Source: an uncultured Candidatus Bathyarchaeia archaeon (lineage in GTDB: Archaea > Thermoproteota > Bathyarchaeia > TCS64). From it: a DNA stretch of 40,225 nucleotides. How positions within the stretch are numbered: the stretch's first letter is position 1; every line of letters begins with the position of its first letter. The notes under the pieces are model-generated. The model did not search any database. It had not been told where the DNA came from and worked only from the letters and a program-made list of their open reading frames with translations. Where the stretch lies: NCBI GenBank assembly GCA_964559155.1, contig CAZLHA010000003.1, forward strand, positions 1-40,225. The letters are read 5' to 3'. A program made the position numbers and the translations under genes. Shown here piece by piece: positions 5,730 through 37,468 of the stretch.

Positions 5730-6595
5730 TGGGCAACCCGGCTTTAATCCTGAACATCAACGACTATGACCCGACAGGTACGCTTCATATCCGGGATCAG
5801 TTTTCCGGTAAGATGCGAAGATGCTTTCGGTGGTTAAGAGGGCGTGTGAATTATGCGCTTGTCGAGAAGGATGTTTTCGGGATGATAGGCAATGTCGAAG
5901 TCTCTCCCGGACAGTTTCGGTTTAACCTTGACAAGGATAAAATACAGGCGTTCATGGCTTGGTTTGCGAATGAGATGAGGGTCGGCATCCTCGAAGGAGG
6001 GGCCGCATTTATAGAAGGAGGTCGGTTCTATCAGGAAAGCTGGATGGATCAATATCTTGGCGCCGCTTATGAGAAAGGTGTTGTCAGGGCTCGTCAGGAG
6101 CTGGTGAACGCAGGATATCCCGTCCAAACGATAGAACAGGCAGGCGGGTTAAGCGCGGTTATGTCTCAGCAGGTTCATATAAACAGAACAGCCTTGATCT
6201 ATATGAGAGCATACGAAGAATTAAAAGGCATCACCGCTGTCACAGGGCAGCAGGTCTCTCGTGAGCTTGCAGATGGCATGGCCCAAGGGCTTCATCCAAG
6301 ACAGATTGCCTCGAATATTAACAAGAATGTCGAAAGCATTACAAAGAAAAGGTCTGTGCTGCTCGCCAGAACGGAAACGATCAGAAGTCATCACATGGCG
6401 AATATGGCAGAGTATAGGGCCGCGCAGGTTATGGGTATAAAAATCAGGGCAGAGTTTCAGACAGCAGGGCACGGTGTTTGTCAGAAGTGCATTGAGATTG
6501 AACGAGAGAATCCGTACACGCTTGACGAGGCTGAAAGGTTAATTCCAGTTCATCCGGATTGTAGATGCGTTGCATTACCTTTACTACAAAAATAA
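5729..6595 (+). CDS. Head morphogenesis / minor capsid protein, Phage_Mu_F (SPP1 gp7) family
   Basis: TAATG coupling to the portal gene. Carries the LLARTETIRSHHMANMAEY motif and a C-terminal PVHPDCRCV, both typical of Mu-F-like proteins. Confidence 0.82.
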   Translation: MGNPALILNINDYDPTGTLHIRDQFSGKMRRCFRWLRGRVNYALVEKDVFGMIGNVEVSPGQFRFNLDKDKIQAFMAWFANEMRVGILEGGAAFIEGGRFYQESWMDQYLGAAYEKGVVRARQELVNAGYPVQTIEQAGGLSAVMSQQVHINRTALIYMRAYEELKGITAVTGQQVSRELADGMAQGLHPRQIASNINKNVESITKKRSVLLARTETIRSHHMANMAEYRAAQVMGIKIRAEFQTAGHGVCQKCIEIERENPYTLDEAERLIPVHPDCRCVALPLLQK

Positions 6596-6613
6596 AGAAA
6601 TAAAAGGAGTGTC

Positions 6614-6919
6614 ATGATAACTCAAGCCAAAAAATTAGGCCGATCAGCATCAAGCGCAGAAGGCCTTCGGATAATCGAAGCCCCGGACGGAGAGATCCTT
6701 GTCAAAGGCAAGCCGGGCTCTGTGACACTATCCAAGCATCGAATAGTTGAAATCCCGGACGGCTATCTGCCTGAAGATGCGGAGACTGACCCGGTGAAGG
6801 CTAAGAAAGCACTGGAGGACAGAATTAAGCGCGGTGAAATGACAAAGGCAGAGATCAGCATTCTCCGGCCAATAACTGGAGAGGTGAAGGTCACTGAGGA
6901 GCCGGTAATTAAGAAATGA
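6614..6919 (+). CDS. Hypothetical protein
   Basis: 101-aa ORF preceded by AAGGAG, co-oriented in the head module. No motif recognised. Confidence 0.5.
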   Translation: MITQAKKLGRSASSAEGLRIIEAPDGEILVKGKPGSVTLSKHRIVEIPDGYLPEDAETDPVKAKKALEDRIKRGEMTKAEISILRPITGEVKVTEEPVIKK

Positions 6920-7320
6920 TTTCAAACCGCAAAATAACCGGCAAGCTCGTACCATGGTGGGATGTTGTTTCTATTATCCGGCCATACACGTCTGATCCGT
7001 ATCCGGCCAAGCGGCTTCAGTACCTCCTGCCGGACGCTGATACAATCCGGTATCTGCTGCATAAGAGTAAGGCGTGGAAGTACGAGTATGACAAAGAAAC
7101 CCGCACCTGCGACGATGCCTGCAATATTTTCAAGGGTTTCCTGTCCAGGAAAGGCTTAGGGCACATTTTAGCGATGAAATGCCGGATTAAGAAACCTGCG
7201 TGGGATGATGCACATGAAGCAATCGGGTTTCTCCGAGATGGCGTTATCCGGTTCGGGGAGCCGCAAACTGCAAGTTTCCCGGCGTATCATGATGCGCCGA
7301 TTCAATGGGTAAGTTTTTAG
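6916..7320 (+). CDS. Hypothetical protein
   Basis: 134-aa ORF with a 4-nt ATGA overlap to the upstream gene. No motif recognised. Confidence 0.5.
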   Translation: MISNRKITGKLVPWWDVVSIIRPYTSDPYPAKRLQYLLPDADTIRYLLHKSKAWKYEYDKETRTCDDACNIFKGFLSRKGLGHILAMKCRIKKPAWDDAHEAIGFLRDGVIRFGEPQTASFPAYHDAPIQWVSF

Positions 7321-7332
7321 AGGATTAAAAAT

Positions 7333-8904
7333 ATGCCAATACCATCAAAAAGACAGGACGAGAGCAGCGAAGAATTCATCGAAAGATGCATGGCCGACGA
7401 TGTAATGAAAGAAGAATACCCTGACAGGGATCAACGGTACGCCGTCTGTTCTCAGCAGATAGGAAACGCCAGAGGCTTAGTCTCCGCTGATATTGTGAGC
7501 AATTCAAGGTATGTCGCTTCAACGCATTACATGGGTTCGGAAAAATGTCTTGTGGCCCCTGTAACGATCATGGTCGAGGGCGAGCATTGCGGGAGCGCAG
7601 GCCCTTTGTTTTATGAGCAGGACATCCTGCAATCGTATGCAGAACAATGGGACATGGTGCCGCTTGCGCTGAACCATCCGAGGCGAGGCGATGATCTTGT
7701 TTCGATAGGGTATGATTCCGATATTTATGACGGGCACTTTCTCGGTTGGCTGAGGAACACATATTATGAAGAAACAACGGACGGTGTGCCAGCCATTAAA
7801 GGCTATGCATGGTTTTCAATCGACAGGCTTTTGAGGCTGAGTCCGAATTTATACGCAAGGGTTTTAGATGGTAATCAGATAGAGGTCAGCACTGGCCTTT
7901 TCCATAATGTCGAAGGCAACCGGGTTGTCTCTATGGAGCCTGATCATCTTGCAATATTGCCGCATGCTGTCGGCGCATGCAGCGTTGAAGACGGATGTGG
8001 CATAAGAGTTAATGCAAAAGGAGGTGATGCAATGGATAAGGAGAAAAAGAAGGATGTTGCCCTTTTCTATCATATCCCTGACATCTATAAAGAGAATGTT
8101 TTTGCCGGTATGGAAGGCAAGGATTATTCTCAGATAATGGATATTGTCCATCGGTCGATAGATGAGATGGATATAGAGAATGAGAAGGTGAATTACGTCC
8201 GGAAAGTTTATGATGATTATGTCATCTATTTTGAACAGAACAGAAACCGGGAGGACAGACTTTTAAAAAGAGAGTATTCCCTGTCAGAAAACGGGGATCT
8301 TTCTTGGGAGTCTGATCCCGTACCCGTAAGGGAAAAGGTCTCTTACGAGGAGATTGGAACAGCAACTTCTTCTAACGAAGAAACAGAAACGGAGGTAACA
8401 AACGATATGAGCAACGATAAAAAGAAAGACAAAGAGCTTGATGGCAACGAAGAGGTATCTTGCTGCCCTGAAAAAGTTCAGACTCTTATCGACAATGAGG
8501 TTTTCTCAGAAGATGACAGAGAATATCTCAAGAATCAGTCTGAAGAAAAGATTGACAAATGGCTTGATCTCATTGCCGACAATGAAGAGGGCACCTCGGC
8601 TGAAACAGAGGAAAAGATTCAGTCCGTGAATGAACTGCCGGAGAATCTTTCGCCTGAGCTGAGAGAAGGCATCGAGTACGGCCAGAAGCTCTTGAACAAG
8701 AGAAAAGGCGAGTTCAAGAAAACCATCCTTGACAACACGAAGCAGTTTACCAACGACGAGTTGGACAAGATGGATTTTAACATGCTTGAAAAGGTTGCTA
8801 ACGCTATCAAGAAGCCGGTTTATCTTGGCGAAGAAGGCGAAGTTGATTTCTCTGCCAACGAGCAGGCGCCCCTTGAAGAAGTGACCATGGACAGCATCAA
8901 ATAA
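7333..8904 (+). CDS. Putative capsid scaffold / prohead maturation protein (DUF2213-like N-domain, acidic C-terminal half)
   Basis: GAGGA RBS. The N-terminal SEEFIERCMADDVMKEEYPDRDQRYAVC motif and ...VPLALNHP segment resemble phage DUF2213 proteins. The C-terminal 250 aa is E/D/K-rich and helical, like a scaffold. Positioned upstream of the capsid gene. Confidence 0.5.
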   Translation: MPIPSKRQDESSEEFIERCMADDVMKEEYPDRDQRYAVCSQQIGNARGLVSADIVSNSRYVASTHYMGSEKCLVAPVTIMVEGEHCGSAGPLFYEQDILQSYAEQWDMVPLALNHPRRGDDLVSIGYDSDIYDGHFLGWLRNTYYEETTDGVPAIKGYAWFSIDRLLRLSPNLYARVLDGNQIEVSTGLFHNVEGNRVVSMEPDHLAILPHAVGACSVEDGCGIRVNAKGGDAMDKEKKKDVALFYHIPDIYKENVFAGMEGKDYSQIMDIVHRSIDEMDIENEKVNYVRKVYDDYVIYFEQNRNREDRLLKREYSLSENGDLSWESDPVPVREKVSYEEIGTATSSNEETETEVTNDMSNDKKKDKELDGNEEVSCCPEKVQTLIDNEVFSEDDREYLKNQSEEKIDKWLDLIADNEEGTSAETEEKIQSVNELPENLSPELREGIEYGQKLLNKRKGEFKKTILDNTKQFTNDELDKMDFNMLEKVANAIKKPVYLGEEGEVDFSANEQAPLEEVTMDSIK

Positions 8905-8934
8905 TTTAACTTTTAATTTGGAGGGCTTATTAAT

Positions 8935-9471
8935 ATGAGTACATCTACTTATAAAACTGTAATTGTTAAGCAGAATGAAGCTCAGAGAGCGCAGGAGGAG
9001 CTGACCGCTGTCTCCACGATTTATCCCGGCGCTCTTGTTGAGATCACCTCTGCAGGCAAGGTACAGCATCATTCAAACGTTGCACAGAACGCAGCTATCA
9101 AGTTTGCGCTTGAGGACAATCTTCAGGGCGAAGGTCTTGATGACACCTATGCCGCAGACGATGTGGTTCAGGTATGGACTCCTCAGCGCGGTGATATGGT
9201 TTTCGCTGTTCTGAATGACGGAGAGGATATCAGCATCGGTGATTTCCTTGAGTCTGCCGGGAATGGTTTCCTGCAGAAGCATGTCGCTGATATTGCTGAA
9301 GGCGGAAGCTCTGCCGAGTCGGTTTCTGACACCACGATTTATGCACATGCAATCGTGGGTATCGCCAGAGAGGCGCTTAACCTTTCAGGATCAAGCGGTG
9401 CAGAGAGCTCCGGCGGTGTTGGCGAGATGATCGGCGACTGGGGTCGAAGAATACTCATTGAAGTATTGTAA
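8935..9471 (+). CDS. Putative head decoration / capsid-associated protein (DUF2190-like)
   Basis: GGAGGG RBS. 178 aa, located between the scaffold-like and major capsid genes. PGALVEITSAGKVQHHS resembles the DUF2190 family. Contains an S/G-rich segment, LSGSSGAESSGG. Confidence 0.4.
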   Translation: MSTSTYKTVIVKQNEAQRAQEELTAVSTIYPGALVEITSAGKVQHHSNVAQNAAIKFALEDNLQGEGLDDTYAADDVVQVWTPQRGDMVFAVLNDGEDISIGDFLESAGNGFLQKHVADIAEGGSSAESVSDTTIYAHAIVGIAREALNLSGSSGAESSGGVGEMIGDWGRRILIEVL

Positions 9472-9500
9472 TTGAAATTTAAAAATAAGGAGCAAAAAAC

Positions 9501-10571
9501 ATGAGTGCGAATATTGATGCAATTCAGTCCGGCAAACCTTTTGGTCAGGTTGCTCAGAAGTATATGGCCGCAGGGCTTTCCGTTGACAATATGCGTCCTT
9601 TCGTTGGCGAGGATCAGGGGTCTTATGTGACCCGGGTTGTCGGCAATGACAGAAAGGCCGTCAACATTCCTCCTCAGACGATAGTGGGTAATGCCACGCT
9701 GAGGCGCGATGAATGGAAAGACCTCGATACGGCTGTTATGAAAGCCGCAAGAGAAAGACTTGTCGGTGTTGGTGATCTTACAAGCCGAGGGCTTGAATAC
9801 AACATTACAAACGGAATGGGTCGAACAGTTCTTGAGTATCATGACATGAACGATCCCGGAGAGGCCGACATTGGTATGTCGCCGGTTGCAAAGGGCAAGA
9901 ACGATGCGCCTGATTACAGCACGAACTATCTGCCGCTGCCCATCATTTACAGTGATTTCACTGTTGATGAACGGCTTTTGCAGACGAGCCGTAACATGGG
10001 CGATTCCATCGACACTACCATGGCGGAATCTGCTGCAAGACGGGTAACGGAAAAGCTCGAAACCCTCTTCTTCACGGACACAAGCTATGCATTCGGTGGT
10101 GGTACGATTTACAGTTACATCAGCCATCCTGACATCAACAGCGTTTCCCTTTCTACAAACTGGGATGCTTCTGATGGTGCCGGTTCAGCCATAATCGACG
10201 ACGTAAGGCAGATGAAAAAGGCAGCCATTGGTGCGAGAAAATATGGCCCCTTTATGCTTTATATCCCGACCGATTATGAAACCATGATGGATCTGGATTA
10301 TTCTTCACAGTACCCGAAGACGATCAAACAGAGAATCCTCGAAATAAGCGGCATTCTTGATGTCAAGGTTGTTGACACTATGCCTGATGACACAGTGCTT
10401 CTGGTCGAGATGACATCCGAGACCGTGCGGCTTATCAACGGCCTCCCTATCAAGGTTGTTCAGTGGGACACTCAGGGTGGAATGATTCATCATTTCAAGG
10501 TTATGACGATTCAGGTGCCGCAGATCCGGTCAGATCAGAACAGCAGAAGCGGTATCGTAAAACTGGCTTAA
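9501..10571 (+). CDS. Major capsid protein, HK97-fold (encapsulin/Linocin_M18-like)
   Basis: AAGGAG RBS, 356 aa. Segments LRRDEWKDLDTAVMKAARERLVGVGDL, LPLPIIYSDFTVDERLL and DTTMAESAARRVTEKLETLFF match the encapsulin-like capsid pattern. Sits at the canonical position. Confidence 0.78.
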   Translation: MSANIDAIQSGKPFGQVAQKYMAAGLSVDNMRPFVGEDQGSYVTRVVGNDRKAVNIPPQTIVGNATLRRDEWKDLDTAVMKAARERLVGVGDLTSRGLEYNITNGMGRTVLEYHDMNDPGEADIGMSPVAKGKNDAPDYSTNYLPLPIIYSDFTVDERLLQTSRNMGDSIDTTMAESAARRVTEKLETLFFTDTSYAFGGGTIYSYISHPDINSVSLSTNWDASDGAGSAIIDDVRQMKKAAIGARKYGPFMLYIPTDYETMMDLDYSSQYPKTIKQRILEISGILDVKVVDTMPDDTVLLVEMTSETVRLINGLPIKVVQWDTQGGMIHHFKVMTIQVPQIRSDQNSRSGIVKLA

Positions 10572-10616
10572 TTCTTTCACAGAATATGTTAATCAAACAT
10601 TTTTTATATAGGAGAT

Positions 10617-11297
10617 TTGGAATTGAAATGGGATATCGGCAAAACACAAACTTTGGATAGAGTCGCCATAATCGGTGGCGGGTGGTCTTTAAAAAATAAA
10701 AACTTGGGGGAGGTCGCTAAAAACATAACGACAATTTGCGTGAATGTCGTTCATGATAGCATTAATATTGATGATCTTGATTTCGTTTTCACCGGGGATT
10801 GCGATCCTTATATGTATATGCGGGGGCAAGATGTCGAAAAGACCACCACAATCGTTACGATGTGTCCTAAAGCCAAGAATAGCGACCTCTCTTATTTTAT
10901 CCCGAGAAATTATGATAAGCTGACCGGGATAAGCGACAACCCGAAAAAACTGTGCTGGAACGAGAACTCAGGCGCTGCCGCCATCGAATTCTCTATTATT
11001 TCCGGTGCTAAAAAGATATATTTGTTCGGATTCGACATGAAGAACAGCCCGTATGGCGAATCCAGATTCCACAGAATTTATCGTGCCCGCGACCCCAAGA
11101 AATATTCATACAACAATCAGCCGAAATACAGTAAGTTTTTCGAGGGTTTCAAACAGATATCCTTGGAAGCCAAAGAGAGAGGGGTCGAGATCATCAATGC
11201 CAACACGGCATCTGCATTGGATGTGTTTGTTAAAATGCCGTTCGACGAAGCGATAGACGAGATAATCGCAAAAGAGACAGAGGAGATTGTATTATGA
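10617..11297 (+). CDS. DUF115/MptE-like (Maf-type) putative glycosyltransferase, paralog 1
   Basis: Motifs VAIIGGGWSL, NSGAAAIEFSIISGAKKIYLFGFDM and VEIINAN. Clear paralog of 11656..12357. The start may be TTG 10623, 7 nt after AGGAGA. Confidence 0.5.
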   Translation: MELKWDIGKTQTLDRVAIIGGGWSLKNKNLGEVAKNITTICVNVVHDSINIDDLDFVFTGDCDPYMYMRGQDVEKTTTIVTMCPKAKNSDLSYFIPRNYDKLTGISDNPKKLCWNENSGAAAIEFSIISGAKKIYLFGFDMKNSPYGESRFHRIYRARDPKKYSYNNQPKYSKFFEGFKQISLEAKERGVEIINANTASALDVFVKMPFDEAIDEIIAKETEEIVL

Positions 11298-11656
11298 CAC
11301 AGGTAAAGATTAAATGGCGGAAAAAAGGCGGTGGTATCCATTATAAAGACGGTAAAAAATATAACAAGGGCGATCTTCTCTGGGCATATCCGGAAGACTT
11401 GACTCCCGGGGATAAAAGTATCTTTGAAAGAGCTGACGGCGCCGCTCCCCAAGATGACAACCCTGCGGAAAAGACACAGCCCGAAGATGCTGGCCTTGAA
11501 ATCGTACACAAAGGCTTTGGCCGGTACAATGTTATTCGCAAAGATACCGAAGAGCCGATCAACAGCAGATATCTGAAAAAGGATGAAGCCCTTGCCCTGC
11601 TTGAAGATGGCGAAAAGGGAGAGGATATCGCAAAGGTTGCATTCGGAGAAGCCTGA
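11294..11656 (+). CDS. Hypothetical protein (120 aa, basic N-terminus, acidic centre)
   Basis: ATGA overlap upstream and TGATG overlap downstream. No motif recognised. Confidence 0.5.
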   Translation: MTQVKIKWRKKGGGIHYKDGKKYNKGDLLWAYPEDLTPGDKSIFERADGAAPQDDNPAEKTQPEDAGLEIVHKGFGRYNVIRKDTEEPINSRYLKKDEALALLEDGEKGEDIAKVAFGEA

Positions 11657-12357
11657 TGCAATGGAAACCAATCAGGATTTGGGACGATGATGAATGCTGG
11701 ATAATCGGTGGCGGATATAGCATAGCGGAACAATTCAATATTCCGTCAAACGTAAAGCCGAAATACCCGTATGATTATCCCGAGTTTGGCAAATATCTTG
11801 AGCCAATACATTCAAAGAAGGTTATAGCGGTCAACAATTCTATGTTTCTCGGGGATTGGATTGATGTTCTCTTTTTTGGAGACAAGTCATGGTGGACACA
11901 GCATCATTTTCAGGTCATTAAGTTCAGCGGGTTGATTGCCACCTGCGCCCCTGAGTTTCGGACAGGTTTCAAGCATATTAAATGTATTCCGAAGAACAAA
12001 AAGAAAGGAACCGGGATGACTTTGAACAAACCGCTTATAAGTTGGAACCACAATTCCGGATTCGCTGCGATCAATCTTGCATATCATCTCGGAGCCAAAA
12101 GAATTATCCTGCTTGGCTTTGATATGAACCGATGTGCAAATACAAACAATATCCATTGGCATGCAGGGCATATCGAGAAAGGCCCTAACAGGGGAAAAGA
12201 TAACTCCAAGCAGCCAAACCCGGTTTTTAATCGTCATATAAAGGGCGAGAAGGATATCGCCAGAGATGCGAAGAAAGCCGGTCTTGAAATTATCAACGCA
12301 AGCCCTGATAGCAGGTTGACAGCTTTTAAAAAAATGAATGTTAAGGAGCTTTTATGA
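11656..12357 (+). CDS. DUF115/MptE-like (Maf-type) putative glycosyltransferase, paralog 2
   Basis: Motifs CWIIGGGYSI, HNSGFAAINLAYHLGAKRIILLGFDM and LEIINAS, in the same order as in 10617..11297. Confidence 0.5.
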   Translation: MQWKPIRIWDDDECWIIGGGYSIAEQFNIPSNVKPKYPYDYPEFGKYLEPIHSKKVIAVNNSMFLGDWIDVLFFGDKSWWTQHHFQVIKFSGLIATCAPEFRTGFKHIKCIPKNKKKGTGMTLNKPLISWNHNSGFAAINLAYHLGAKRIILLGFDMNRCANTNNIHWHAGHIEKGPNRGKDNSKQPNPVFNRHIKGEKDIARDAKKAGLEIINASPDSRLTAFKKMNVKELL

Positions 12358-13136
12358 TACACTTTTGTTCCAGCTTATGCCTCAACAGTCCTTATAAATG
12401 GGCCTATGCCAAAGATTGTCAGAATTACAATGATACAGATACGTATCTCGAATTTGCGACCATGATGCTGAGAAGTGTTTATAAACATCATCCTGACAGC
12501 AGGTTTTATTTGCTCGGGATGAATCTGGATGACGCTCAGGTACAGACCTTAAAGAACGCTCATCCTCTGGTAAACATCCTTCCTTTTCATTTCGGGAAAG
12601 TAACCAATCAGCAGCATTACAAGGGGATAATAGAATGGAACCGGATCGTTTTTATTTGGCAAAAACTTGCGATGGAAAAGGTAGCTATCCCGAAAGGGGA
12701 TATTCTTGTATATCTCGACATTGATTGTCTTCTTCGTGCACCTTTGAAAATTTTCAAATACATGACAGACCTCAAGTTGGATATTGGGGTATTGAAAAGA
12801 AACGCCAAGCAATACGATAAAGAGATCAATATGGGCGTGTTGTTCATTCGGAACACTCAGCCGTCCCGGGACTTTATCTCTGCTTGGATGGACGGGCTTC
12901 CGGCCCCTGAAGGGTTACTGCCTAAACGGGCCGATAGTGAACGCACATATTCTCATTCTCAGGCGATTTTCAATCATTTGATGCAGAGTAAACAGTACAA
13001 AGGAGTCCAATTTTGGCCTTTGCCTACTCAATTCAATGATAAACGTTTGAGCAATGATTCGACGATATGGCATGGAAACCGAGGCAATAAATTTGACAGA
13101 TTAAAAGATTTCAGAAAGGAGATAAGCCAATGGTAA
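12354..13136 (+). CDS. GT-A glycosyltransferase, family 8-like (DxD)
   Basis: LVYLDIDCLL (DxD) and NMGVLFIRN fit the GT8 YLDxD / NxGV pattern. ATGA overlap with the upstream gene. Confidence 0.55.
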   Translation: MIHFCSSLCLNSPYKWAYAKDCQNYNDTDTYLEFATMMLRSVYKHHPDSRFYLLGMNLDDAQVQTLKNAHPLVNILPFHFGKVTNQQHYKGIIEWNRIVFIWQKLAMEKVAIPKGDILVYLDIDCLLRAPLKIFKYMTDLKLDIGVLKRNAKQYDKEINMGVLFIRNTQPSRDFISAWMDGLPAPEGLLPKRADSERTYSHSQAIFNHLMQSKQYKGVQFWPLPTQFNDKRLSNDSTIWHGNRGNKFDRLKDFRKEISQW

Positions 13137-13855
13137 AGAAAGATGAAGAGCTGTTTGCTGAAGATGGAAAAAGCAGATTATTTGAACCGATTTTACTCCA
13201 TACCGTCGGGCATGAAGGGTCATCCAGTGTGATGAGCATTTTAAAGACGTTCGGGCTTTTTCTGGGCACGGATCTCTCTGTCGGCAAGCGCCCGTTCTAT
13301 GAATACAAGCCGATACAGAAAATAAACAAACATATCATACAAGCTAAAGGATTTCCTTATCCATGGGATCTCTCAAAAAGAGGAGAGATATTAAAGCCTT
13401 TTCTGAGGGATTATAAATATATTCAGAAGGTAAGAGGAGACATTGCAAAGAGCATTCTCGATCAGGGTTTTCATATTAAACTTGATGTGCCGTGGGGATG
13501 GAAAGACCCAAGAACAACCATCACCCTTCCTTTCTGGATAAAAGTATTTCCCCGGTGCAAGATAATTTTCCTGAAAAGAGACAAAAAAGATGCGAAGCCG
13601 GGCTGGCATGCTTATGGTGACTGGGGCTATGACTTCTATGACGCTTATCGAAAAGAAGATATGGCGTATGTTTCGGTCGAATCGAACAACGAATATTTTG
13701 TTCTTTCGTATGACGAGCTTTCCAATAATTTCGCTGAAACGTGTAAGAAAATATGTGATTTCATGGAGGTTCCGATTTCAGATGTCAGGATAGATAAGGC
13801 AAGGAGGCTGTGGAAGCCCAAGTATGATGGTAAAATCAAAAATGTTTTTGGTTAG
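13130..13855 (+). CDS. Sulfotransferase-like P-loop protein (weaker paralog of 18230..18982)
   Basis: EPILLHTVGHEGSSSVMSIL sits at the 5'-PSB position and CKIIFLKRDKKD at the 3'-PB position. Both are collinear with the clearer motifs of 18230..18982. Confidence 0.4.
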   Translation: MVKKDEELFAEDGKSRLFEPILLHTVGHEGSSSVMSILKTFGLFLGTDLSVGKRPFYEYKPIQKINKHIIQAKGFPYPWDLSKRGEILKPFLRDYKYIQKVRGDIAKSILDQGFHIKLDVPWGWKDPRTTITLPFWIKVFPRCKIIFLKRDKKDAKPGWHAYGDWGYDFYDAYRKEDMAYVSVESNNEYFVLSYDELSNNFAETCKKICDFMEVPISDVRIDKARRLWKPKYDGKIKNVFG

Positions 13856-13858
13856 AAG

Positions 13859-14092
13859 ATGGGATTAAAAAAAACACACATAGATTTGATTGACAAATAT
13901 CTGTCAAAGAAAGCGAAGACGGCTGTTTCGTTCGGGTATCCTGAGCTGAAATGGGAAAAGGCGCCTGAATCGTATAAGTTTTTCAAGGAGCATCTTGGGC
14001 TGGAGTTGACCGTCTATGATATTAAAAATTACGGGCATGGCGAGCATTATGTTGACCTGAACAGAGCGGTGGTATATGATTCCATCAAGTGA
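13859..14092 (+). CDS. Hypothetical small protein (77 aa)
   Basis: ORF 3 nt after the upstream stop, overlapping the next gene by 17 nt. No confident motif. Confidence 0.35.
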   Translation: MGLKKTHIDLIDKYLSKKAKTAVSFGYPELKWEKAPESYKFFKEHLGLELTVYDIKNYGHGEHYVDLNRAVVYDSIK

Positions 14093-14768
14093 AAACAGCA
14101 GGATATTAATTATAACAGCGCATCCGGATGATGAATTGTTGTCTTGCGGAGGGCTGATATATCAGGAGAGCAAATTTCACAAGATTGATGTCTGTGTTGT
14201 CACTCACAAAGGAGAAAGATGGCAGGATAATTTTTTCAAGGTCTGTGATGAGCTCGGTGCAAACCGGGCGATAAGCCTTGATATCCCTCTCTGGATAAGC
14301 AAGAAAGGCCGTGTTCTATATTTTTTTGACAGGGACGAGTTTGAACTTGCCATCTCGAAGGAGATACCCGGGGATTTCCTCTATGACTATGACCTGTACT
14401 TAACCCATGGGCTTGACGGAGATATTGACAATCATCCTCATCACAAGCATTTGGCAGACATTATTACAAAGAGCTTTTTCGGCAGACAGATATGGCATTT
14501 CATGGCGTTCCCGAGGCTTGGAGTAAAGAGCCACCATCCGTTATACGCATATCATCAGAGTCTTGAATGGCAGGAGTCTTTCTTCAAGAAGGGGTTTCTC
14601 TCACCGAGACTGGCCGAGAGGGTAGACAAGGTTTATCAGCTCGATGAAACGACCGTCATCAAGAAAAAGGCCTTGAAAAAGATATACATGAAAAACAAGG
14701 ATCACGATTACAGGATGGTGAATTATCCTATCGAAATGTTCGTTAAAAATAAGGAGTGTTGCGCTTGA
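14076..14768 (+). CDS. PIG-L / LmbE family N-acetylglucosaminyl deacetylase
   Basis: Canonical RILIITAHPDDELLSCGG motif near the N-terminus, with a downstream His cluster DNHPHHKH. Confidence 0.8.
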   Translation: MIPSSENSRILIITAHPDDELLSCGGLIYQESKFHKIDVCVVTHKGERWQDNFFKVCDELGANRAISLDIPLWISKKGRVLYFFDRDEFELAISKEIPGDFLYDYDLYLTHGLDGDIDNHPHHKHLADIITKSFFGRQIWHFMAFPRLGVKSHHPLYAYHQSLEWQESFFKKGFLSPRLAERVDKVYQLDETTVIKKKALKKIYMKNKDHDYRMVNYPIEMFVKNKECCA

Positions 14769-15784
14769 TTATTGCCGCTGTCATGTATAGTCCGTTTCCT
14801 GTCAATGAAGTCCGTGGGCTATCCGGCTATGGAGGGGCCCCAAGATTTTGGGAAGGCTTTGCACATGGTCTCGATGAAGTGTGCAGGGAGAATGGCCCTC
14901 AGCACGAGCTTTGGATTTTTGCACCGGGGAAATCAACATCTGGAATCTATGCCAACAATTTTGTACGAGCAGGGGGACAACCCCTCGATCTTGATGCGTT
15001 GCTCATAAAACTCAAAGAATTAAACCCTGATATCGTTATAGGCAATCATCCTTATTGCCTGTCAGGTGAAATCGTAGGAGCTTTTCCTCATCTTTGTCGG
15101 ATCGTTGGATATAAAAAACAGCTTGGGAAATATAGATTCTTAAAAAACTTTGTTACGAACAGTTATTTTGGCAGAGCGCATTATAAAAAGAAGAATTGGC
15201 CGGTAATATATCAATGCTGTCATCCGGACGAGGTTGAATTTGTCGGGCATAAACAGGATTATTTTTTATTTATGTCGAATATCACAAGAGGGTTTAAAGA
15301 AAAGGGCCTTCTGACAGCCATTAACCTTGCGAATAAGACAGGCATAGATTTACACATAGTTGGGCCTTCGGGTGGCGACAGATCCTCTTTAAAACGCCTG
15401 AAAAAGATCATCAGCGGGAGGAAAAACATAAAGTATGTCGGGCCGCTGTCAGGTGAAGCAAAAAAGATGGAAATAGCCAATGCGAAAGCTCTGCTGTATC
15501 CGATTGATGACCAATGCAAAGAAATGGGAAGCACTACTGTAATAGAATGTGCATACTGCGGAACACCTGTCATAACCAATGATGTCGGATGCATGCCTGA
15601 ATATGTCTGTCATGGGAGAACCGGGTATCTCTGCAATAATGAAGACGAATATATCAAGGCTATAAACGATATTGAAGATATCAATCCATTCGATTGCTGC
15701 CAATGGGCCGAAACATTGTTTGACTGGCGGGACATTGCAGAAAAATACATTAATCTTTGTCAGGAGATCATAGAAAAAAATTGA
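14756..15784 (+). CDS. GT-B glycosyltransferase, family 4-like
   Basis: TTG start. C-terminal EMGSTTVIECAYCGTPVITNDVGCMPEYVCHGRTGYL matches the GT4 E-x7-E region. Confidence 0.78.
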   Translation: MLRLIIAAVMYSPFPVNEVRGLSGYGGAPRFWEGFAHGLDEVCRENGPQHELWIFAPGKSTSGIYANNFVRAGGQPLDLDALLIKLKELNPDIVIGNHPYCLSGEIVGAFPHLCRIVGYKKQLGKYRFLKNFVTNSYFGRAHYKKKNWPVIYQCCHPDEVEFVGHKQDYFLFMSNITRGFKEKGLLTAINLANKTGIDLHIVGPSGGDRSSLKRLKKIISGRKNIKYVGPLSGEAKKMEIANAKALLYPIDDQCKEMGSTTVIECAYCGTPVITNDVGCMPEYVCHGRTGYLCNNEDEYIKAINDIEDINPFDCCQWAETLFDWRDIAEKYINLCQEIIEKN

Positions 15785-16524
15785 TAACATTCGTCTGCTT
15801 CAAATGGCAATTTAATAATAAGGAATATCAACACCTTCGGAGGCTGAAACAGTTCTCCGGCAAGCATGTGAATATTCTGCACAGGATGGTGTCGAAATAT
15901 TATCGGGACAGGTTCCGGTTCGTGTGCATCACAGACGATGAAAAAGAGATAAGCAGCAAGGTCGATACATTCCCTCTATGGGATGATTACAAGAAACTCG
16001 GCGGCTGTTACTTGAGGCTGAAAATTTTCGACAGAGATTTAAACAGAGAGATAGCGGATGGATCTGATTATATCGTATGCATCGACCTTGATGCTGTTAT
16101 CGTGGATGACATCACATCATTTCTGAATGCACATAAAGGCAGGGGGGATCTTGTCACTTGGCATCGTCCCGGAGAAAATAACCCGTATTGTGGGGCGATA
16201 TGGATGATGCGACCCGGAACATGCAGTTTTTTATGGGAAGATTTTTCAGAACAGAAGATGAAAGCGATAAAGCAGGATACCGTGAAGCCGACAAAAAATC
16301 TCTTGTTGAGCAAAGGGACTGACCAAGCATGGATTAATTATAGACTTGGCGAAGATCATGATGCCTCGGTCAAGTCGTTCGGTTCGGGACTGTATGATTA
16401 TAAACGATTGAATTCAGAAGATGTTTTGCCCAATGATGCCAAGATAGTCTTTTTTAACGGCAGGCGGTATATGCCTGAGAATTTTAAACATTTAAAATGG
16501 GTCAAAGATAATTACAATGGATGA
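15757..16524 (+). CDS. GT-A-like glycosyltransferase (FVCFKW / CITDD / DLDAVIVDD family), paralog 1
   Basis: Motifs ITFVCFKW, FVCITDD and CIDLDAVIVDDI (DxD). The start may instead be TTG 15781, overlapping the upstream TGA. Confidence 0.5.
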   Translation: MSGDHRKKLITFVCFKWQFNNKEYQHLRRLKQFSGKHVNILHRMVSKYYRDRFRFVCITDDEKEISSKVDTFPLWDDYKKLGGCYLRLKIFDRDLNREIADGSDYIVCIDLDAVIVDDITSFLNAHKGRGDLVTWHRPGENNPYCGAIWMMRPGTCSFLWEDFSEQKMKAIKQDTVKPTKNLLLSKGTDQAWINYRLGEDHDASVKSFGSGLYDYKRLNSEDVLPNDAKIVFFNGRRYMPENFKHLKWVKDNYNG

Positions 16525-17122
16525 ACAATTAAATCCATGGACAGTAGAGTCTGGTCTTAAATACTGGTATAAGCACAAGGAATCACATTATATAAACCAG
16601 ATTGCCAAGAAGTATAATAAGTTCGATGTCATGAGAATTATCAAAAAACATTATGGAAAAGACAAAATCCACACTGTCGTGGACATTGCTGGCGGGAAAT
16701 ACGGCGGGTTTCTTTATTTTTTCAAAGAAGGCAAGGAGCGTTATCTTGTAGATATTCTTGCTGGTTATTTCTCCGGAGTGGATGATAAGTTAAACAAGCT
16801 ACCTGATGACGTCACGCCGATTGTTTGTGATTTTACCGGCATGCCTTTCAAAGAAAGCGTAGATATTATGTTCAGTCAGGAATCAATAGATCATTGTGTT
16901 TCGGAGGATCACTACTATGAAAGCATCGACAAAATTGTTGACGCCCTCTCACCCGGTGGCTTGCTTTTCCACGAATGGATGGTTCGCAAAGGTCAAATCG
17001 AAGGGCATTTGATTGTGCGGGATTGCACGGAGGTCATAAAAGATTTCGGGAAACTATCTGTTATTCAGAATCAACGGGTGAAAAAACGATGCTATTTGGT
17101 CTTTAAAAAAGAGGAAAAATGA
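16517..17122 (+). CDS. Class I SAM-dependent methyltransferase
   Basis: Motif I VVDIAGGKYGG, a post-I acidic residue (YLVDIL), and LSPGGLLF. Confidence 0.68.
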   Translation: MDEQLNPWTVESGLKYWYKHKESHYINQIAKKYNKFDVMRIIKKHYGKDKIHTVVDIAGGKYGGFLYFFKEGKERYLVDILAGYFSGVDDKLNKLPDDVTPIVCDFTGMPFKESVDIMFSQESIDHCVSEDHYYESIDKIVDALSPGGLLFHEWMVRKGQIEGHLIVRDCTEVIKDFGKLSVIQNQRVKKRCYLVFKKEEK

Positions 17123-17821
17123 ATGGGAAAAAAGGATAAAAAAAATGCAGTGAACGTGGTCTGTTTTTATTGGCCGGGGAAAGACCGACCAGGCTGGTCG
17201 GACGAAAGCAAAGCCCGGCAATATATTTCCACCTTCTATAGTATGTTCAAGCGAAATACAACGATACCGATAAACGTCCATTGTATTACGACTCTTGAGC
17301 CATTCACCCCGTTCATGACGTTTCATCGGCTTGAATCTCCGAGCTGGAAAGGCTGTCTGCCGAAATATTCCGTGTTCAATAAGGATCTGGGAATCAAAGG
17401 CCGGGTGTTTGCGTGTGACCTTGACGTGGTTGTTGTCGGAAACATGGACGAGATTCTTTCATACGATGGCCCTCTTGCGACTCGCTCTACTTTCGTTGGC
17501 GAGAAACTGTCCGGCGGGGATATGGTGGCTTTTAACGCCGGGTCCGGAGATTATAACTGGATATGGGATGAGTTTCGAGATGACCCGGAAGGTGTCGAGC
17601 AGTTCACCGAGGGCCGGGAGCGATGGTTATATCGGTATCATCCGGAATTAAAAGGCAAATTGGTTTATTTGCAGGATGTTTTCAAAGATCAGATTTACAG
17701 TTACAAAAGGCACATAAAACCAAGGAACACGTTACCAAAGAATGCAAGGATAGTCAGTTGTCATGGCAAGCCTAGGCCGCATGAAATACAAGAGCAATGG
17801 CGGATACAACACTGGAGATGA
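17123..17821 (+). CDS. GT-A-like glycosyltransferase, paralog 2 of 15757..16524
   Basis: Motifs VNVVCFYW, VHCITT, ACDLDVVVVGNM and ARIVSCHG, collinear with paralog 1. Confidence 0.5.
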   Translation: MGKKDKKNAVNVVCFYWPGKDRPGWSDESKARQYISTFYSMFKRNTTIPINVHCITTLEPFTPFMTFHRLESPSWKGCLPKYSVFNKDLGIKGRVFACDLDVVVVGNMDEILSYDGPLATRSTFVGEKLSGGDMVAFNAGSGDYNWIWDEFRDDPEGVEQFTEGRERWLYRYHPELKGKLVYLQDVFKDQIYSYKRHIKPRNTLPKNARIVSCHGKPRPHEIQEQWRIQHWR

Positions 17822-17822
17822 T

Positions 17823-18242
17823 ATGATATTAATAACCGGGTCAGAAGGGTATATCGGCACAAATTTGAAGAATCTCCTGCGATACCAAGGTATTGTCTTT
17901 GAAGGGATTGATAAAAAGATAGGCTATGACGTCCTGCAATATGAGGATTTTAAAGATGTAAATCTGATTGTCCATCTTGCTGCTGTTTCGGGGATACAGG
18001 CTTGTAATAAAGATTTAGACATGGCAATCCGGGATAACATTTCGACTGCGAATCATGTTTTCCGTGGGGCTTTTGCAAATAACATCCCGGTCGTTTTTAC
18101 GTCCTCTCAGGCTGCGAAAAATCCGCTCCTGAATTCATACGCTATGATGAAAAAAATTATCGAGAAGGAGGCTGAGAGGCTGAATGATATGGGGGCGAAG
18201 ATAGAGGATCTCTTCCAACCCAAAATTCAATGGAGCTTTTGA
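17823..18242 (+). CDS. Truncated NAD-dependent epimerase/dehydratase (SDR) - N-terminal Rossmann half only
   Basis: MILITGSEGYIGTNL (GxxGxxG), LAAVSG, and SSQAA...YAMMK (S...YxxxK). The ORF stops about 20 aa after the catalytic YxxxK at 139 aa, whereas extended SDR epimerases are about 300 aa. Confidence 0.6.
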   Translation: MILITGSEGYIGTNLKNLLRYQGIVFEGIDKKIGYDVLQYEDFKDVNLIVHLAAVSGIQACNKDLDMAIRDNISTANHVFRGAFANNIPVVFTSSQAAKNPLLNSYAMMKKIIEKEAERLNDMGAKIEDLFQPKIQWSF

Positions 18243-18982
18243 TTAATATGGACGATCTGACAGACAAACCAATCTTGATTACAGGCGCCGCCCGGTCAGG
18301 CACATCTATGATCGCTGGTATCATTTATATCTGTGGAGCGTTCAAGGGCGATACATCCGGGCCAAATAAAAACAATCAGAAAGGTATGTTTGAAAACTTT
18401 CATGTCCGGAATAAAATCGTCAAGCCTTATCTCGAATCAATAGGTGCTGATCGTCTCGGTCAATACCCGTTACCGGATATTAACAACCTTCCGGTCAACC
18501 CCGCCTTTGGGAGGGACATCATAGAGGTTATGAAATCGCAGGGGCACAAGTCTGGTCAATGGATGTACAAGGGCGCCAAGATTTGTCTCTGCTGGCCGAC
18601 ATGGCAGTTCGCTTTTCCGGAAGCCAAGATTATCATTGTCAGAAGAAAAACCCCTGATATTGTCAGTAGCTGTTTAAAAACAAGTTTTATGAAAGCTTTT
18701 CATCGTCAGGCGACATTAAAAGAAATCGGTGCGAGAAACTCAAGAGAAGGCTGGCTATGGTGGGTGCATCAGCATGAAAGGCGCATGGTTGAGATGTGCA
18801 AGGCTTGGAACGATGTTAAATTCGTGTGGCCTGAGAGATTAATCGAGGGCGATTACGATCAAATGCGAGATACAATTCAATGGCTTGGCTTGACTTGGAA
18901 TCAAAAAGAGGTTATGAATTTCATAGAGCCTAAGTTGTGGAAAACAAGGCAAAAATTAAAAATAGGAGCAGCAAATGGCTGA
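18230..18982 (+). CDS. Sulfotransferase (PAPS-dependent family-like)
   Basis: ILITGAARSGTSMIAG matches the 5'-PSB loop and KIIIVRRKTPDIVSS the 3'-PB motif. The start may be ATG 18248. The stop overlaps the next (neck) gene by 8 nt. Confidence 0.62.
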   Translation: MELLINMDDLTDKPILITGAARSGTSMIAGIIYICGAFKGDTSGPNKNNQKGMFENFHVRNKIVKPYLESIGADRLGQYPLPDINNLPVNPAFGRDIIEVMKSQGHKSGQWMYKGAKICLCWPTWQFAFPEAKIIIVRRKTPDIVSSCLKTSFMKAFHRQATLKEIGARNSREGWLWWVHQHERRMVEMCKAWNDVKFVWPERLIEGDYDQMRDTIQWLGLTWNQKEVMNFIEPKLWKTRQKLKIGAANG

Positions 18983-19367
18983 AGAATCTGATTGGAGAAC
19001 AGGCGACAGTGAGGTTCGAGAGTTGTTGACGTCAGAAGAAAGCTCTGCGATTTCCGACCTTGATCCATATATTTACGCAGCTCATCTTATCGTAGACCAT
19101 ATTCCCTCGAGCAGCTACGGAGCCAACCATCTTGAGCAGATAGAGCGATGGTTGTCGGCCCATATCGCTTCTTCATCGTATAGCGCAGAAGGAGAGATGG
19201 AGCAAATGAAAATGGGGGACACCTCCATTAAGTTTCGATCTCAAACATCCTCAGAAAGAGCTGAATATCTGGCAACAACAAGGTACGGAAGAACCGTGAT
19301 GCAACTGGATGTATACAATACATTGTGTGGCGGCAAAAGACAGGGCGCTAAATTAAAGGCATGGTGA
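18975..19367 (+). CDS. Putative head-tail adaptor/connector protein
   Basis: 130 aa, first gene of the neck block. ...YIYAAHLIVDHI...ERWLSAHIASS resembles DUF4054/gp6-like adaptors. The call is mainly positional. Confidence 0.4.
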   Translation: MAEESDWRTGDSEVRELLTSEESSAISDLDPYIYAAHLIVDHIPSSSYGANHLEQIERWLSAHIASSSYSAEGEMEQMKMGDTSIKFRSQTSSERAEYLATTRYGRTVMQLDVYNTLCGGKRQGAKLKAW

Positions 19368-20719: not shown

Positions 20720-21142
20720 ATGAGTGATGCAGTATCGGGTGTTGGAGCATTATTCCGAAAATGGACAGGATCTGCTTGGGTTAGTATAGGCGAGGTTCTC
20801 ACCATATCCGGGCCCAACATGAGCAGAGAAACTATTGATGTAACGAACCTTGCCTCTACGGGCGGTTATCGTGAATTCATTGCATCTTTTAGAGACCCCG
20901 GAACCGTTTCTTTCAATATGAACTTCAATCGGTCAGATTACGACACAATGAAGACAGACTTTGAAAGTGATGTAGTACAGGATTATGAGATTATGCTCCC
21001 GGACACGGATAACACAAGTCTCGAATTTTCAGGTCTCGTAACGGAGCTTCCTCTGGATATTTCCGGGGATTCTCAGATTACGTGCAATGTTTCGATCAAG
21101 GTTACTGGTCAGGTAACGCCTGAGTCAGGTTCCGGTTCTTAA
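20720..21142 (+). CDS. Major tail (tube) protein
   Basis: AGGAGG RBS. ISGPNMSRETIDVTNLASTGGYREFIASFRDPGTVSFNMNFN fits the TP901-1/phi13-type tail tube pattern. Precedes the G/T chaperones. Confidence 0.7.
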   Translation: MSDAVSGVGALFRKWTGSAWVSIGEVLTISGPNMSRETIDVTNLASTGGYREFIASFRDPGTVSFNMNFNRSDYDTMKTDFESDVVQDYEIMLPDTDNTSLEFSGLVTELPLDISGDSQITCNVSIKVTGQVTPESGSGS

Positions 21143-36520: not shown

Positions 36521-37468
36521 CTAAAACGGATCGTCGTCATCTTCTGCAGAAGCATCATCCTTCTCTTCCTGCTTTTCTTCTTTTTTCATGGCGTTCTTCG
36601 GACGGCCACGTGCCTGTTCTTTTTTCTCCGGCTTTTCATCCTCCTTCGGATCGTCATCGAAAGAGATTTCTTCCTGATTCGCCTTCTCTTTTATCTCTTC
36701 CTGTATCTCTTCTTCTCCCATGATTTCAGCTTCCGGCACAGCCTCTTCCTCCATGGCAAATTTCTGCATGATCGGGTTAGAGTTATCATCCGTTTCGCTG
36801 ATAAGCTTAACGGCAAGCCGGTTCGTGACAGTTCTCTTGCACATCTGCTGTTTGAAGTCCTTGTGAACAGCGCCTTCTTTATCCGGGTTAATCTTGGATT
36901 TTTTCCATGCTGTCCGTATCTCATCCATGGTCATGATTTCCGTTTCAGTGCTGGAGGTGCCGTCTATGTTTTCTCTTGATGCAACAACATAAGCGCCTAT
37001 AATCTTGTCGTTACTGACGTTTTTGAGGGATGATTTGTGCTCCAAGATGCGTTTGCCGCCGGAAGCATCATATTCAAACTCAAATGTGTCGTCCTCATAA
37101 ACGACCTGTGCTATCATTCTGTATCCGGTTAGCCTTCTGACCACGTTTCTCTTACCATGATAAGATTCCATGCAGGTTAATTGGTTTCCGTACACGATAA
37201 AATAGCATTGTCCCTTGAGCGGGTTCATCCCGAGGACGATCATCCGCAGCAGAGCCCTTGATATGCTTTGAGGCGTGCAAACCTCAAGGGCAGGTTTGTT
37301 GTTCTTGTCCTTGGTTTCGCTGAGAATCAGGTTGGCCGCCCGCATGGCATTACCAACGGCATAATTGTCAGGCAGAACCAGATTTCCCTCGTTCACATAG
37401 TTCTGTACGGTTGCTTCGACGTCCTTAATAATTGTTTTTGGTGTCAGTGCTTTTGTTTTTTCACTCAT
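36521..37468 (-). CDS. recT: RecT-family single-strand annealing recombinase with an acidic SSB-like C-terminal tail
   Basis: ATG 37468 (MSEKTKALT) follows AAGGGAGAG and overlaps the upstream stop (ATGA). SISRALLRMIVLGMNPLKGQCYFIVYGNQLTCMESYHGK fits the RecT core. The C-terminal ~80 aa is E/K-rich and ends ...AEDDDDPF. Confidence 0.82.
   Translation of the reverse strand: MSEKTKALTPKTIIKDVEATVQNYVNEGNLVLPDNYAVGNAMRAANLILSETKDKNNKPALEVCTPQSISRALLRMIVLGMNPLKGQCYFIVYGNQLTCMESYHGKRNVVRRLTGYRMIAQVVYEDDTFEFEYDASGGKRILEHKSSLKNVSNDKIIGAYVVASRENIDGTSSTETEIMTMDEIRTAWKKSKINPDKEGAVHKDFKQQMCKRTVTNRLAVKLISETDDNSNPIMQKFAMEEEAVPEAEIMGEEEIQEEIKEKANQEEISFDDDPKEDEKPEKKEQARGRPKNAMKKEEKQEEKDDASAEDDDDPF

Follow-up and report, generated by a model that had tools for sequence, protein, structure and literature searches.

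Between the major capsid gene and the first head–tail adaptor gene of the DNA analysed here (the window: 40,225 nucleotides (nt), contig CAZLHA010000003.1 of assembly GCA_964559155.1, filed under an uncultured Candidatus Bathyarchaeia archaeon) lies an 8.4-kb island of 13 genes, at positions 10617-18982. The window is part of a siphovirus-type genome, and the island probably (probability about 0.6) encodes a late, cytoplasmic multi-enzyme pathway that builds a variable, probably sulfated O-glycan on the capsid decoration protein, perhaps also on the tail tube protein. This reading draws on the enzyme families, operon structure, solubility and conservation of the island, on its layout of constant flanks around a variable core, and on the co-occurrence of its core enzymes with a serine-rich loop of the decoration protein, all of which were established in the analysis described below.

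The 13 open reading frames (ORFs) all lie on the + strand and occupy the whole interval between the capsid gene and the DUF4054 adaptor gene. An earlier reading made from the letters of the window alone (the sequence-only reading) had listed these co-oriented ORFs, their overlapping or near-zero junctions and the lack of a promoter or terminator at either edge, and ORF calls, junction sequences and motif counts agreed with it on each point. Genes are joined by ATGA at 11294 and 12354, TGATG at 11656 and ATGGTAA at 13130, by a 0-nt gap at 17122/17123 and by TTGA overlaps at the probable starts 14765 and 15781, and the last island gene runs into the adaptor gene through the 8-nt overlap ATGGCTGA at 18975-18982. 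The sole real intergenic gap, of 45-51 nt, lies 3′ of the capsid stop codon and contains a Shine–Dalgarno sequence, AGGAGA (10611-10616), which argues that the first ORF starts at TTG 10623 instead of 10617; true starts probably lie some codons 3′ of the longest-ORF start there and also at TTG 14765 and TTG 15781. Promoter-like matches (34, versus 30.0+/-5.6 expected from shuffled sequence) and terminator-like matches (17, versus 14.8+/-4.3) occur at chance level, with no signal above chance at the island edges. The overlaps and the absence of such signals bear out the earlier proposal that the island is co-transcribed and translationally coupled with the structural genes.

Pfam calls on the island proteins were judged by curated cut-offs, with PHROG profiles used alongside (Table 1). 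Profile and structure searches back nearly all of the inventory first deduced from the sequence: glycosyltransferases, a PIG-L deacetylase, a methyltransferase dependent on S-adenosylmethionine (SAM), two sulfotransferases of the type that uses 3′-phosphoadenosine-5′-phosphosulfate (PAPS) and a truncated short-chain dehydrogenase/reductase (SDR). An NCBIfam search of the island proteins gave only generic GT4 matches of use, single-sequence searches of solved structures were uninformative for two core enzymes, and among profile searches of solved structures just two, those with the GT8-like and decoration families, were informative. The PIG-L protein (14076-14768) both matches its family and carries the metal-binding motif, within the stretch ITAHPDDELL. 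The SDR protein consists of the Rossmann half with GxxGxxG and YxxxK motifs and ends just past YxxxK, where the next gene overlaps its end; its start is most likely ATG 17823, 1 nt past the preceding stop codon, and, lacking the C-terminal substrate-binding half, it is probably what is left of a sugar-nucleotide enzyme in decay. No membrane segment was found in the 13 proteins (highest 19-residue Kyte–Doolittle mean 1.50), in keeping with the solubility first proposed from sequence.

Two assignments changed. The protein of 12354-13136, previously called GT8-like, belongs elsewhere (Table 1), the GT8-like enzymes being the two paralogues 15757-16524 and 17123-17821. ORF 11294-11656, formerly counted among the island enzymes, encodes a conserved small protein, for which phmmer found 43 homologues directly 3′ of the capsid gene in relatives. 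In alignment it is composed of an N-terminal domain (W-R-K-x-G-G-G...I-K-P-G), a hypervariable linker rich in P, E and K, and a C-terminal domain (G-W-Y-D-V...G-K...N...A-L-R-K), and it could be a structural protein or an enzyme partner. Its homologues are ~100-165 residues (aa) long (for example, L107:1479-1829 and L102:11082-11531, where L numbers denote related loci); the gene comes straight after the capsid gene in most relatives, some of them without the enzymes.

The proteins of 10617-11297 and 11656-12357 are paralogues (29% identity, E 1e-23); relatives carry one such copy, and 10617-11297 is the extra one in the window. Their PF01973 scores, 15.2 and 17.8 bits, lie below the curated cut-off of 34.6, and some of their homologues bear a precomputed PF01973 label. 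The AlphaFold model of 11656-12357 is a single domain with a mean predicted local distance difference test score (pLDDT) of 90.8. Its best fold in the PDB is that of Campylobacter Cst-I (2p2v; E 3e-3, probability 0.98, template modelling (TM) score 0.48), followed by human ST6GALNAC2 (probability 0.84) and archaeal MptE (8sd5; probability 0.80), none of them reaching E <= 1e-3. The motifs GGG(P/Y)S, NSG and GFD are invariant in the family, and the N-terminal GGG(P)S and C-terminal G-F-D motifs align with those of archaeal MptE. Maf proteins, to which the sequence-only reading had likened the pair, are ~600 aa long and multi-domain, with flanking acceptor-recognition domains, whereas the island proteins have 226 and 233 aa and no such architecture. 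The Maf label was not upheld, and the combination of sub-threshold PF01973 scores, phrog_4603 matches and Cst-I/MptE folds led to the proteins being named sialyltransferase-like members of the MptE/DUF115 superfamily. Their likeness to Maf and GT42 (Cst-I/Cst-II) enzymes extends to a predicted cytoplasmic placement of sugar on protein or glycan, and 11656-12357 is a putative first or protein-proximal glycosyltransferase. A viral-contig search using the sialyltransferase-like protein alone gave no match.

The two GT8-like proteins, 15757-16524 and 17123-17821, are distant paralogues that lack a Pfam match and share phrog_1962. Compared with solved structures, the family profile matches 6mw5 (7.8e-5) and 5gvv (1.3e-4), GT8 structures that extend protein-linked glycans, over ~100 residues around the DxD motif. 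In that motif (DLD) the second Asp is invariant and the first nearly so. Orthologues of 17123-17821 in L005 and L006 are 56-58% identical to it. PmgQ of phage P1 falls in this core family, as does hdmD of P7/SJ46; PmgQ is annotated solely with a 'putative morphogenetic function', and its membership hints that P1-like phages may also glycosylate something in morphogenesis.

The model of the core sulfotransferase (18230-18982) has a pLDDT of 91, and 17 of 17 PDB matches at E <= 1e-3 are sulfotransferases, headed by the uncharacterised bacterial protein 3rnl and the tyrosylprotein sulfotransferases TPST1/2 (E 4e-5 to 1e-4, TM 0.5-0.57). Annotated phage sulfotransferases were also matched in the viral library search. 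Residues T18, G19, A21, R22, S23, G24, T25 and S26, together with R138, R139 and S147, are invariant in 36 sequences, so that both PAPS-binding motifs, the RSGTS 5′-phosphosulfate loop and the RR...S 3′-phosphate motif, are kept in the family, which comprises 361 clusters at 50% identity (E <= 1e-30). The fold, the RSGTS loop and the 3′-phosphate motif, with Arg and Ser eight residues apart, are shared with the Sulfotransfer_3 enzymes (TPST1/2, mycobacterial Stf and 3rnl); at 13-16% identity to any solved structure, the island enzyme belongs to a large family of its own, tied to the phage neck gene. Both window sulfotransferases exceed the Sulfotransfer_3 (PF13469) cut-off of 27 bits, with scores of 30.0 and 28.2. 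The second, 13130-13855, aligns with the core family at an hhalign probability of 88.7 and may be inactive or use another donor.

An APS-kinase-like gene (APS, adenosine-5′-phosphosulfate) adjoins the sulfotransferase gene in at least eight related loci, which ties the family to PAPS. Short genes of this cysC-like type were noted at L002:15587-15982, L013:9634-9996, L098:9994-10383, L094:16038-16403, L084:20154-20549, L053:8088-8453 and L007:878-1282, and they look as if they supplied PAPS to the sulfation step. The current reading of phage cysC is that of an auxiliary gene of sulfur assimilation or sulfur cycling (PMC10914622); if the supply role is real, the locus offers another explanation for at least some phage cysC genes.

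The island is a lineage trait. Capsid relatives at 40-57% identity abound: at least 519 were confirmed in one metagenome scan, with more in IMG/VR and in genome bins. The sequence-only reading had judged the island to be richer in AT than its flanks, and its GC content is indeed mildly lower (42.6% versus 45.9% in the structural genes), but GC at third codon positions (GC3) is not (47.1% versus 45.6%), and codon usage is the same (correlation of relative synonymous codon usage with the structural genes r 0.81, against a structural self-baseline of 0.82). A recent foreign insertion, or moron, is ruled out by the match in GC3 and codon usage and by core genes that diverge in step with the capsid, the identity of the core sulfotransferase between loci (46-58%) tracking that of the capsid (40-51%). 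Rather than an insertion of foreign composition, the island is a conserved module that a large clade of uncultured phages inherits vertically.

Gene order in the relatives was mapped with hidden Markov models built for the capsid, small, sialyltransferase-like, GT8-like and sulfotransferase proteins. The sialyltransferase-like gene is present, ~400 nt 3′ of the capsid gene, in 47/47 metagenome and IMG/VR loci that extend at least 3 kb 3′ of the capsid gene. The usual order is capsid, small protein, sialyltransferase-like enzyme, 0-10 variable genes, GT8-like enzyme, sulfotransferase and adaptor, with the sulfotransferase gene directly 5′ of the adaptor gene and the GT8-like gene at its side in most relatives. 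Islands measure 1.1 kb at the short end (L059, with the sialyltransferase-like gene alone), 1.9-2.5 kb in L019, L066 and L058, and up to more than 9.4 kb; on a 107-kb contig, an island exceeding 10 kb includes a methyltransferase–GT9 fusion as well as a kinase and dehydrogenases. The window island, in which all three core families are duplicated, is at the large end. Synteny comparison also recovered relatives in which capsid and adaptor genes are adjacent, namely L101, L112 and L113 from genome bins and the nearest isolated phage, Brevundimonas phage MaInes. In L102 only the small protein and the sulfotransferase are present, and L103 lacks the sialyltransferase-like gene.

The variable core, 185 genes from relatives and 6 from the window, resolves into 98 sequence clusters among its 191 genes, the window's six all being singletons. 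Clusters that could be named by Pfam have almost exclusively glycan functions. The commonest, GT11 (13 loci), Methyltransf_24 (10 loci), FkbM methyltransferase (9 loci), hexapeptide acyltransferase (8 loci) and GT47/RXYLT1-like (8 loci) are accompanied by GT2, guanosine diphosphate (GDP)-mannose dehydratase and epimerase, DegT aminotransferase, radical SAM, split transketolase and sugar C-methyltransferase genes. The earlier statement that nucleotide-sugar synthesis is missing therefore holds for the window and fails for its relatives, which have GDP-mannose dehydratase, epimerase, aminotransferases and APS kinase. A single hydrophobic stretch occurs in only 2/191 variable proteins and polytopic proteins in 0/191, and the absence of flippases and polymerases (Wzx/Wzy/GtrA type) reported for the island was confirmed in the 13 window and 191 variable proteins.

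The strongest link between these enzymes and a virion protein is their co-occurrence with a loop of the decoration protein (8935-9471). The profile of the decoration family matches the solved decoration proteins 9ocb_H (2e-10) and 5wk1_X (1e-9), the match ending near residue 132, and the serine-rich segment NLSGSSGAESSGG (residues 149-170, encoded at 9379-9444) lies in a C-terminal extension beyond it. Across relatives the consensus of the loop is D-[LM]-S-[GD]-S-S-[GA]-x-[DE]. Its Ser-Ser pair is found in 29/32 loci that have both the sialyltransferase-like and sulfotransferase genes versus 0/8 that lack one or both (Fisher 2e-6, with kinship ignored), the number of loop serines follows island length (Spearman 0.68), and the segment is essentially deleted in the island-less L101 and L113. 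Solved homologues and this co-occurrence together back the decoration protein as the candidate acceptor that the sequence-only reading had named. The tail tube protein (20720-21142) is a secondary candidate; many island-bearing relatives have GS-rich tube tails, and L112 and L113 do not. The pattern is weaker than that of the loop and inconsistent, ten island-bearing relatives having no such tail, and this counts against the tail as acceptor.

In the pathway proposed, transcription and translation of the island would go along with those of the late head and neck genes, and its enzymes would act on new structural proteins before or during assembly. The sialyltransferase-like enzyme 11656-12357, with its paralogue 10617-11297, would add the protein-proximal sugar; the GT8-like, GT4 and GT-A transferases would lengthen the glycan; the PIG-L deacetylase and the methyltransferase would tailor it; and the PAPS-dependent sulfotransferase 18230-18982 would add sulfate. 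Donors (nucleotide sugars, SAM and PAPS), for whose synthesis the window encodes nothing, would be drawn from host pools. The serines clustered in the C-terminal loop of the decoration protein would most likely be the acceptor, with the GSGS tail of the tube protein as a possible second site. Inferences in this scheme are which protein is modified, in what order the enzymes act, which sugars are used and that sulfate reaches the virion. As the flanking genes are kept while the middle cassette is swapped, the glycan is expected to differ among related phages in the manner of serotypes. A more specific version, in which a phage pathway places sulfated O-glycans on decoration-protein serines, the cassette is a serotype locus under diversifying selection and some phage cysC genes supply PAPS, is put forward only tentatively.

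Several observations weigh against this pathway. The fold evidence for a sialyltransferase-like enzyme is weak (TM 0.48, E 3e-3), and genes for the synthesis of cytidine monophosphate (CMP)-linked sugars, such as CMP-nonulosonic acid, were not seen among the best 25 of the 80 island families. In the second sulfotransferase the cofactor loop is degenerate, reading HEGSSS in place of the ARSGTS that is invariant in the core family, and the SDR protein is truncated. The loop–enzyme statistic ignores phylogeny: most island-less relatives are also more distant, L101 being the only close one with loop data, and three loci with both core enzymes (for example, L058) lack the Ser-Ser motif. The island is not needed for morphogenesis, since some close relatives assemble without it, and L102 and L103 have a sulfotransferase but no sialyltransferase-like gene, so that the enzymes need not share one fixed pathway. 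The virion glycan and its sulfate are predictions from genes, and the phage is uncultured.

An unlikely alternative to glycosylation of the virion is that the island remodels envelope glycans of the host (lipopolysaccharide, capsule or surface-layer glycoprotein) through the host's lipid-carrier, flippase and ligase machinery, which could block superinfection or keep progeny off debris. It draws on enzyme families (GT2, GT4, GT8, GT9, GT11, GDP-fucose-type synthesis, acyltransferases and methyltransferases) typical of O-antigen and capsule loci, its hypervariable middle between conserved flanks recalls their layout, and dispensability for assembly in some close relatives would suit a host-directed role. 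However, neither the window nor the 191 variable proteins include an initiating phosphoglycosyl transferase, a flippase, a polymerase or any polytopic protein, the genes are translationally coupled within the late structural operon, no integrase or repressor was seen within the window, which covers part of a genome only, and the enzymes co-occur with the serine-rich loop of a capsid surface protein.

It is rather improbable that the sulfotransferase acts apart from the glycosyltransferases and directly sulfates Tyr or Ser of a virion protein, the island then combining two separate systems. The best characterised structural neighbours of the enzyme are tyrosylprotein sulfotransferases, its conservation far exceeds that of the glycan cassette, it dispenses with the sialyltransferase-like gene in L102 and L103, and an acidic stretch and then G-Y close many of the longer decoration loops. 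The fold match to those neighbours is moderate, though (TM 0.5-0.57, 13-16% identity), with 3rnl and the carbohydrate- or lipid-sulfating Stf enzymes scoring alike, and most loci pair the sulfotransferase gene with the GT8-like one. Tyrosine sulfation of the decoration loop in particular was downgraded, as neither the window loop nor the short DMSGSSGADPSG loops contain tyrosine.

We know of no sulfated or deacetylated DNA glycans. That the enzymes hypermodify phage DNA, the setting from which phage glycosyltransferases are best known (PMC12619734; bioRxiv 10.1101/2023.12.21.572611), or yield some non-virion product such as a small molecule is very improbable, given that no island contains or adjoins genes for base hydroxymethylation, TET/JBP-like enzymes or nucleotide metabolism, that the island sits in the head–neck and not the replication module, and that the enzymes co-occur with the decoration-protein loop.

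The closest precedent for virion glycosylation by the phage itself is found in mycobacteriophages such as Corndog and Che8, with soluble glycosyltransferases and a methyltransferase in the structural operon. Self-glycosylation of phage particles has so far been shown, to our knowledge, only for mycobacteriophages. In cluster O, an O-methyltransferase and three glycosyltransferases are encoded inside the structural operon, and the enzymes are present in infected cells and absent from virions (PMC4351075). According to two later papers that cite Freeman et al. 2023, mycobacteriophage enzymes place O-glycans on capsid and tail tube subunits, and these glycans lower antibody recognition (PMC11600133, PMC12619734). 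The window phage is of another lineage, its host is probably not an actinobacterium, and tblastn of two core transferases against the phage collection gave no mycobacteriophage among the matches listed. Its island is much larger (12 enzymes) and hypervariable, adding a sialyltransferase-like enzyme, a PIG-L deacetylase, PAPS sulfotransferases and, in relatives, APS kinase, and the predicted acceptor is an internal serine-rich loop of the decoration protein, in contrast to the subunit C-termini of mycobacteriophages.

Chlorovirus PBCV-1 likewise encodes cytoplasmic glycosyltransferases and methyltransferases that build an unusual, partly methylated glycan on its major capsid protein without host secretory machinery. 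It resembles the island in having a virus-encoded cytoplasmic glycan pathway for a capsid protein, but it is a eukaryotic giant virus with N-linked glycans, scattered genes and no reported sulfation, whereas the window genes form one cassette. Bacterial O-antigen and capsule loci share the arrangement of conserved flanks around variable glycosyltransferases, sugar-nucleotide enzymes and methyl- or acyltransferases; unlike them, the island lacks a lipid-carrier initiator, flippase, polymerase and exporter, encodes soluble proteins and belongs to a phage head–neck operon. The membrane-embedded proteins of phage seroconversion systems (Gtr and Wzx/Wzy-dependent) are similarly absent from the 13 window and 191 variable proteins.

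The literature search found no report of a phage sulfotransferase or Maf-like enzyme acting on virions, nor of sulfated phage particles. As a concept, virion glycosylation is made less unprecedented by the mycobacteriophages. New elements are the conserved PAPS sulfotransferase, the sialyltransferase-like core enzyme and the serotype-like variable cassette across a very large uncultured clade. A possible experimental model is the isolated 39-kb phage Tetraselmis viridis virus S20 (L004, NC_020840), in which an analogous island (5769-12038) lies between the gene at the capsid position and the head closure gene and encodes two sialyltransferase-like proteins, glycosyltransferases, a methyltransferase and a GT8-like protein, with no sulfotransferase.

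Should the pathway exist as proposed, virion self-glycosylation would extend to a very large environmental clade, at least as wide as the capsid relatives counted above, and sulfation, possibly on a sialic-acid-like or de-N-acetylated sugar, would be added to the chemistry of phage particles. Conserved flanks around a variable core suggest that virion glycans are under diversifying pressure like bacterial O-antigens, raising the question of what recognises phage surfaces in sediments, sludge and habitats like them; candidates include host defences, grazers, adsorption to particles, and binding to mucus or exopolymers. The D-L/M-S-G-S-S-G loop of the decoration protein is a concrete candidate acceptor site.

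Table 1. Features of the structural block and of the island between capsid and adaptor genes, in order along the window; E values and bit scores are those of the named profiles, with bit scores followed where given by the curated cut-off.
Feature	Coordinates	Strand	Evidence or position
Terminase-like gene, portal gene (PF06381), Mu F-like gene		+	Upstream end of structural block
523-aa head protein		+	Between Mu F-like gene and decoration gene
Capsid decoration protein, candidate glycan acceptor	8935..9471	+	phrog_766 head decoration, E 6e-10
Major capsid protein, HK97 fold	9501..10571	+	DUF6260 7e-15, Linocin_M18; tblastn to annotated phage major capsid proteins; left island boundary
Extra sialyltransferase-like paralogue (MptE/DUF115 superfamily)	10617..11297	+	phrog_4603 3e-22; PF01973 15.2 bits
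Conserved small protein	11294..11656	+	phmmer homologues 3′ of capsid gene; no Pfam/PHROG match
Core sialyltransferase-like enzyme	11656..12357	+	phrog_4603 1e-35; PF01973 17.8 bits
GT-A fold nucleotide-diphospho-sugar transferase, DID motif	12354..13136	+	PF03407 Nucleotid_trans 4e-5, 24.1 bits vs 22; in variable cassette
Divergent second sulfotransferase	13130..13855	+	Sulfotransfer_3 7.6e-7, Sulfotransfer_1 2.5e-6, both above cut-off
77-aa ORF, no family	13859..14092	+	No Pfam/PHROG match; overlaps PIG-L gene by 17 nt
PIG-L family de-N-acetylase, AHPDDE motif	14076..14768	+	PF02585 1.3e-7, 32.6 bits vs 28.2
GT4-type (GT-B fold) glycosyltransferase	14756..15784	+	Glycos_transf_1 2e-17, Glyco_trans_1_4 1e-13; phrog_3408
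GT8-like DxD glycosyltransferase, extra paralogue	15757..16524	+	phrog_1962 9e-13; DLD motif kept vs core family
Class I SAM-dependent methyltransferase	16517..17122	+	Methyltransf_11 1.3e-5, 26.1 bits vs 21.2
Core GT8-like DxD glycosyltransferase	17123..17821	+	phrog_1962 7e-16; neighbour of sulfotransferase in most relatives
Truncated extended-SDR epimerase/dehydratase	17823..18242 (ORF from 17763)	+	PF01370 3.9e-9, profile positions 1-117 of 240
Core PAPS-type sulfotransferase, usually last island gene	18230..18982	+	Sulfotransfer_3 2.8e-6, 28.2 bits vs 27
DUF4054 head–tail adaptor-like protein	18975..19367	+	PF13262 7.7e-5; phrog_302; right island boundary
Neck proteins, tail terminator (PF12691), tube protein (see next row), 1785-aa tape measure		+	After DUF4054 adaptor
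Tail tube protein, secondary candidate acceptor	20720..21142	+	phrog_158 major tail protein 3e-16; C-terminus ...PESGSGS

The structural block is flanked by - strand genes for an SbcC-like ATPase/nuclease (442-2475) and a RecT recombinase (36521-37489), and no tRNA genes were found in the window. Genome bins with related capsid genes (L098-L134) are assigned to many phyla, Bacteroidota being the commonest (~11/37); because phage contigs are often mis-binned, this taxonomy is a weak hint to the host. The tube proteins of two relatives carry extra domains, a ~90-aa C-terminal extension in L102 (13946-14635), which has a reduced island, and a ~100-aa N-terminal insertion in L112 (2682-3422), which has none, and these may represent an alternative, protein-based decoration of the tail. 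In L003, Pseudomonas phage vB_PaeS-D14C, a GT9 heptosyltransferase and a SAM methyltransferase (8158-9916) stand beside an annotated anti-CRISPR gene, in another accessory slot of the structural operon, located between the head–tail adaptor and a gp10-like tail gene.

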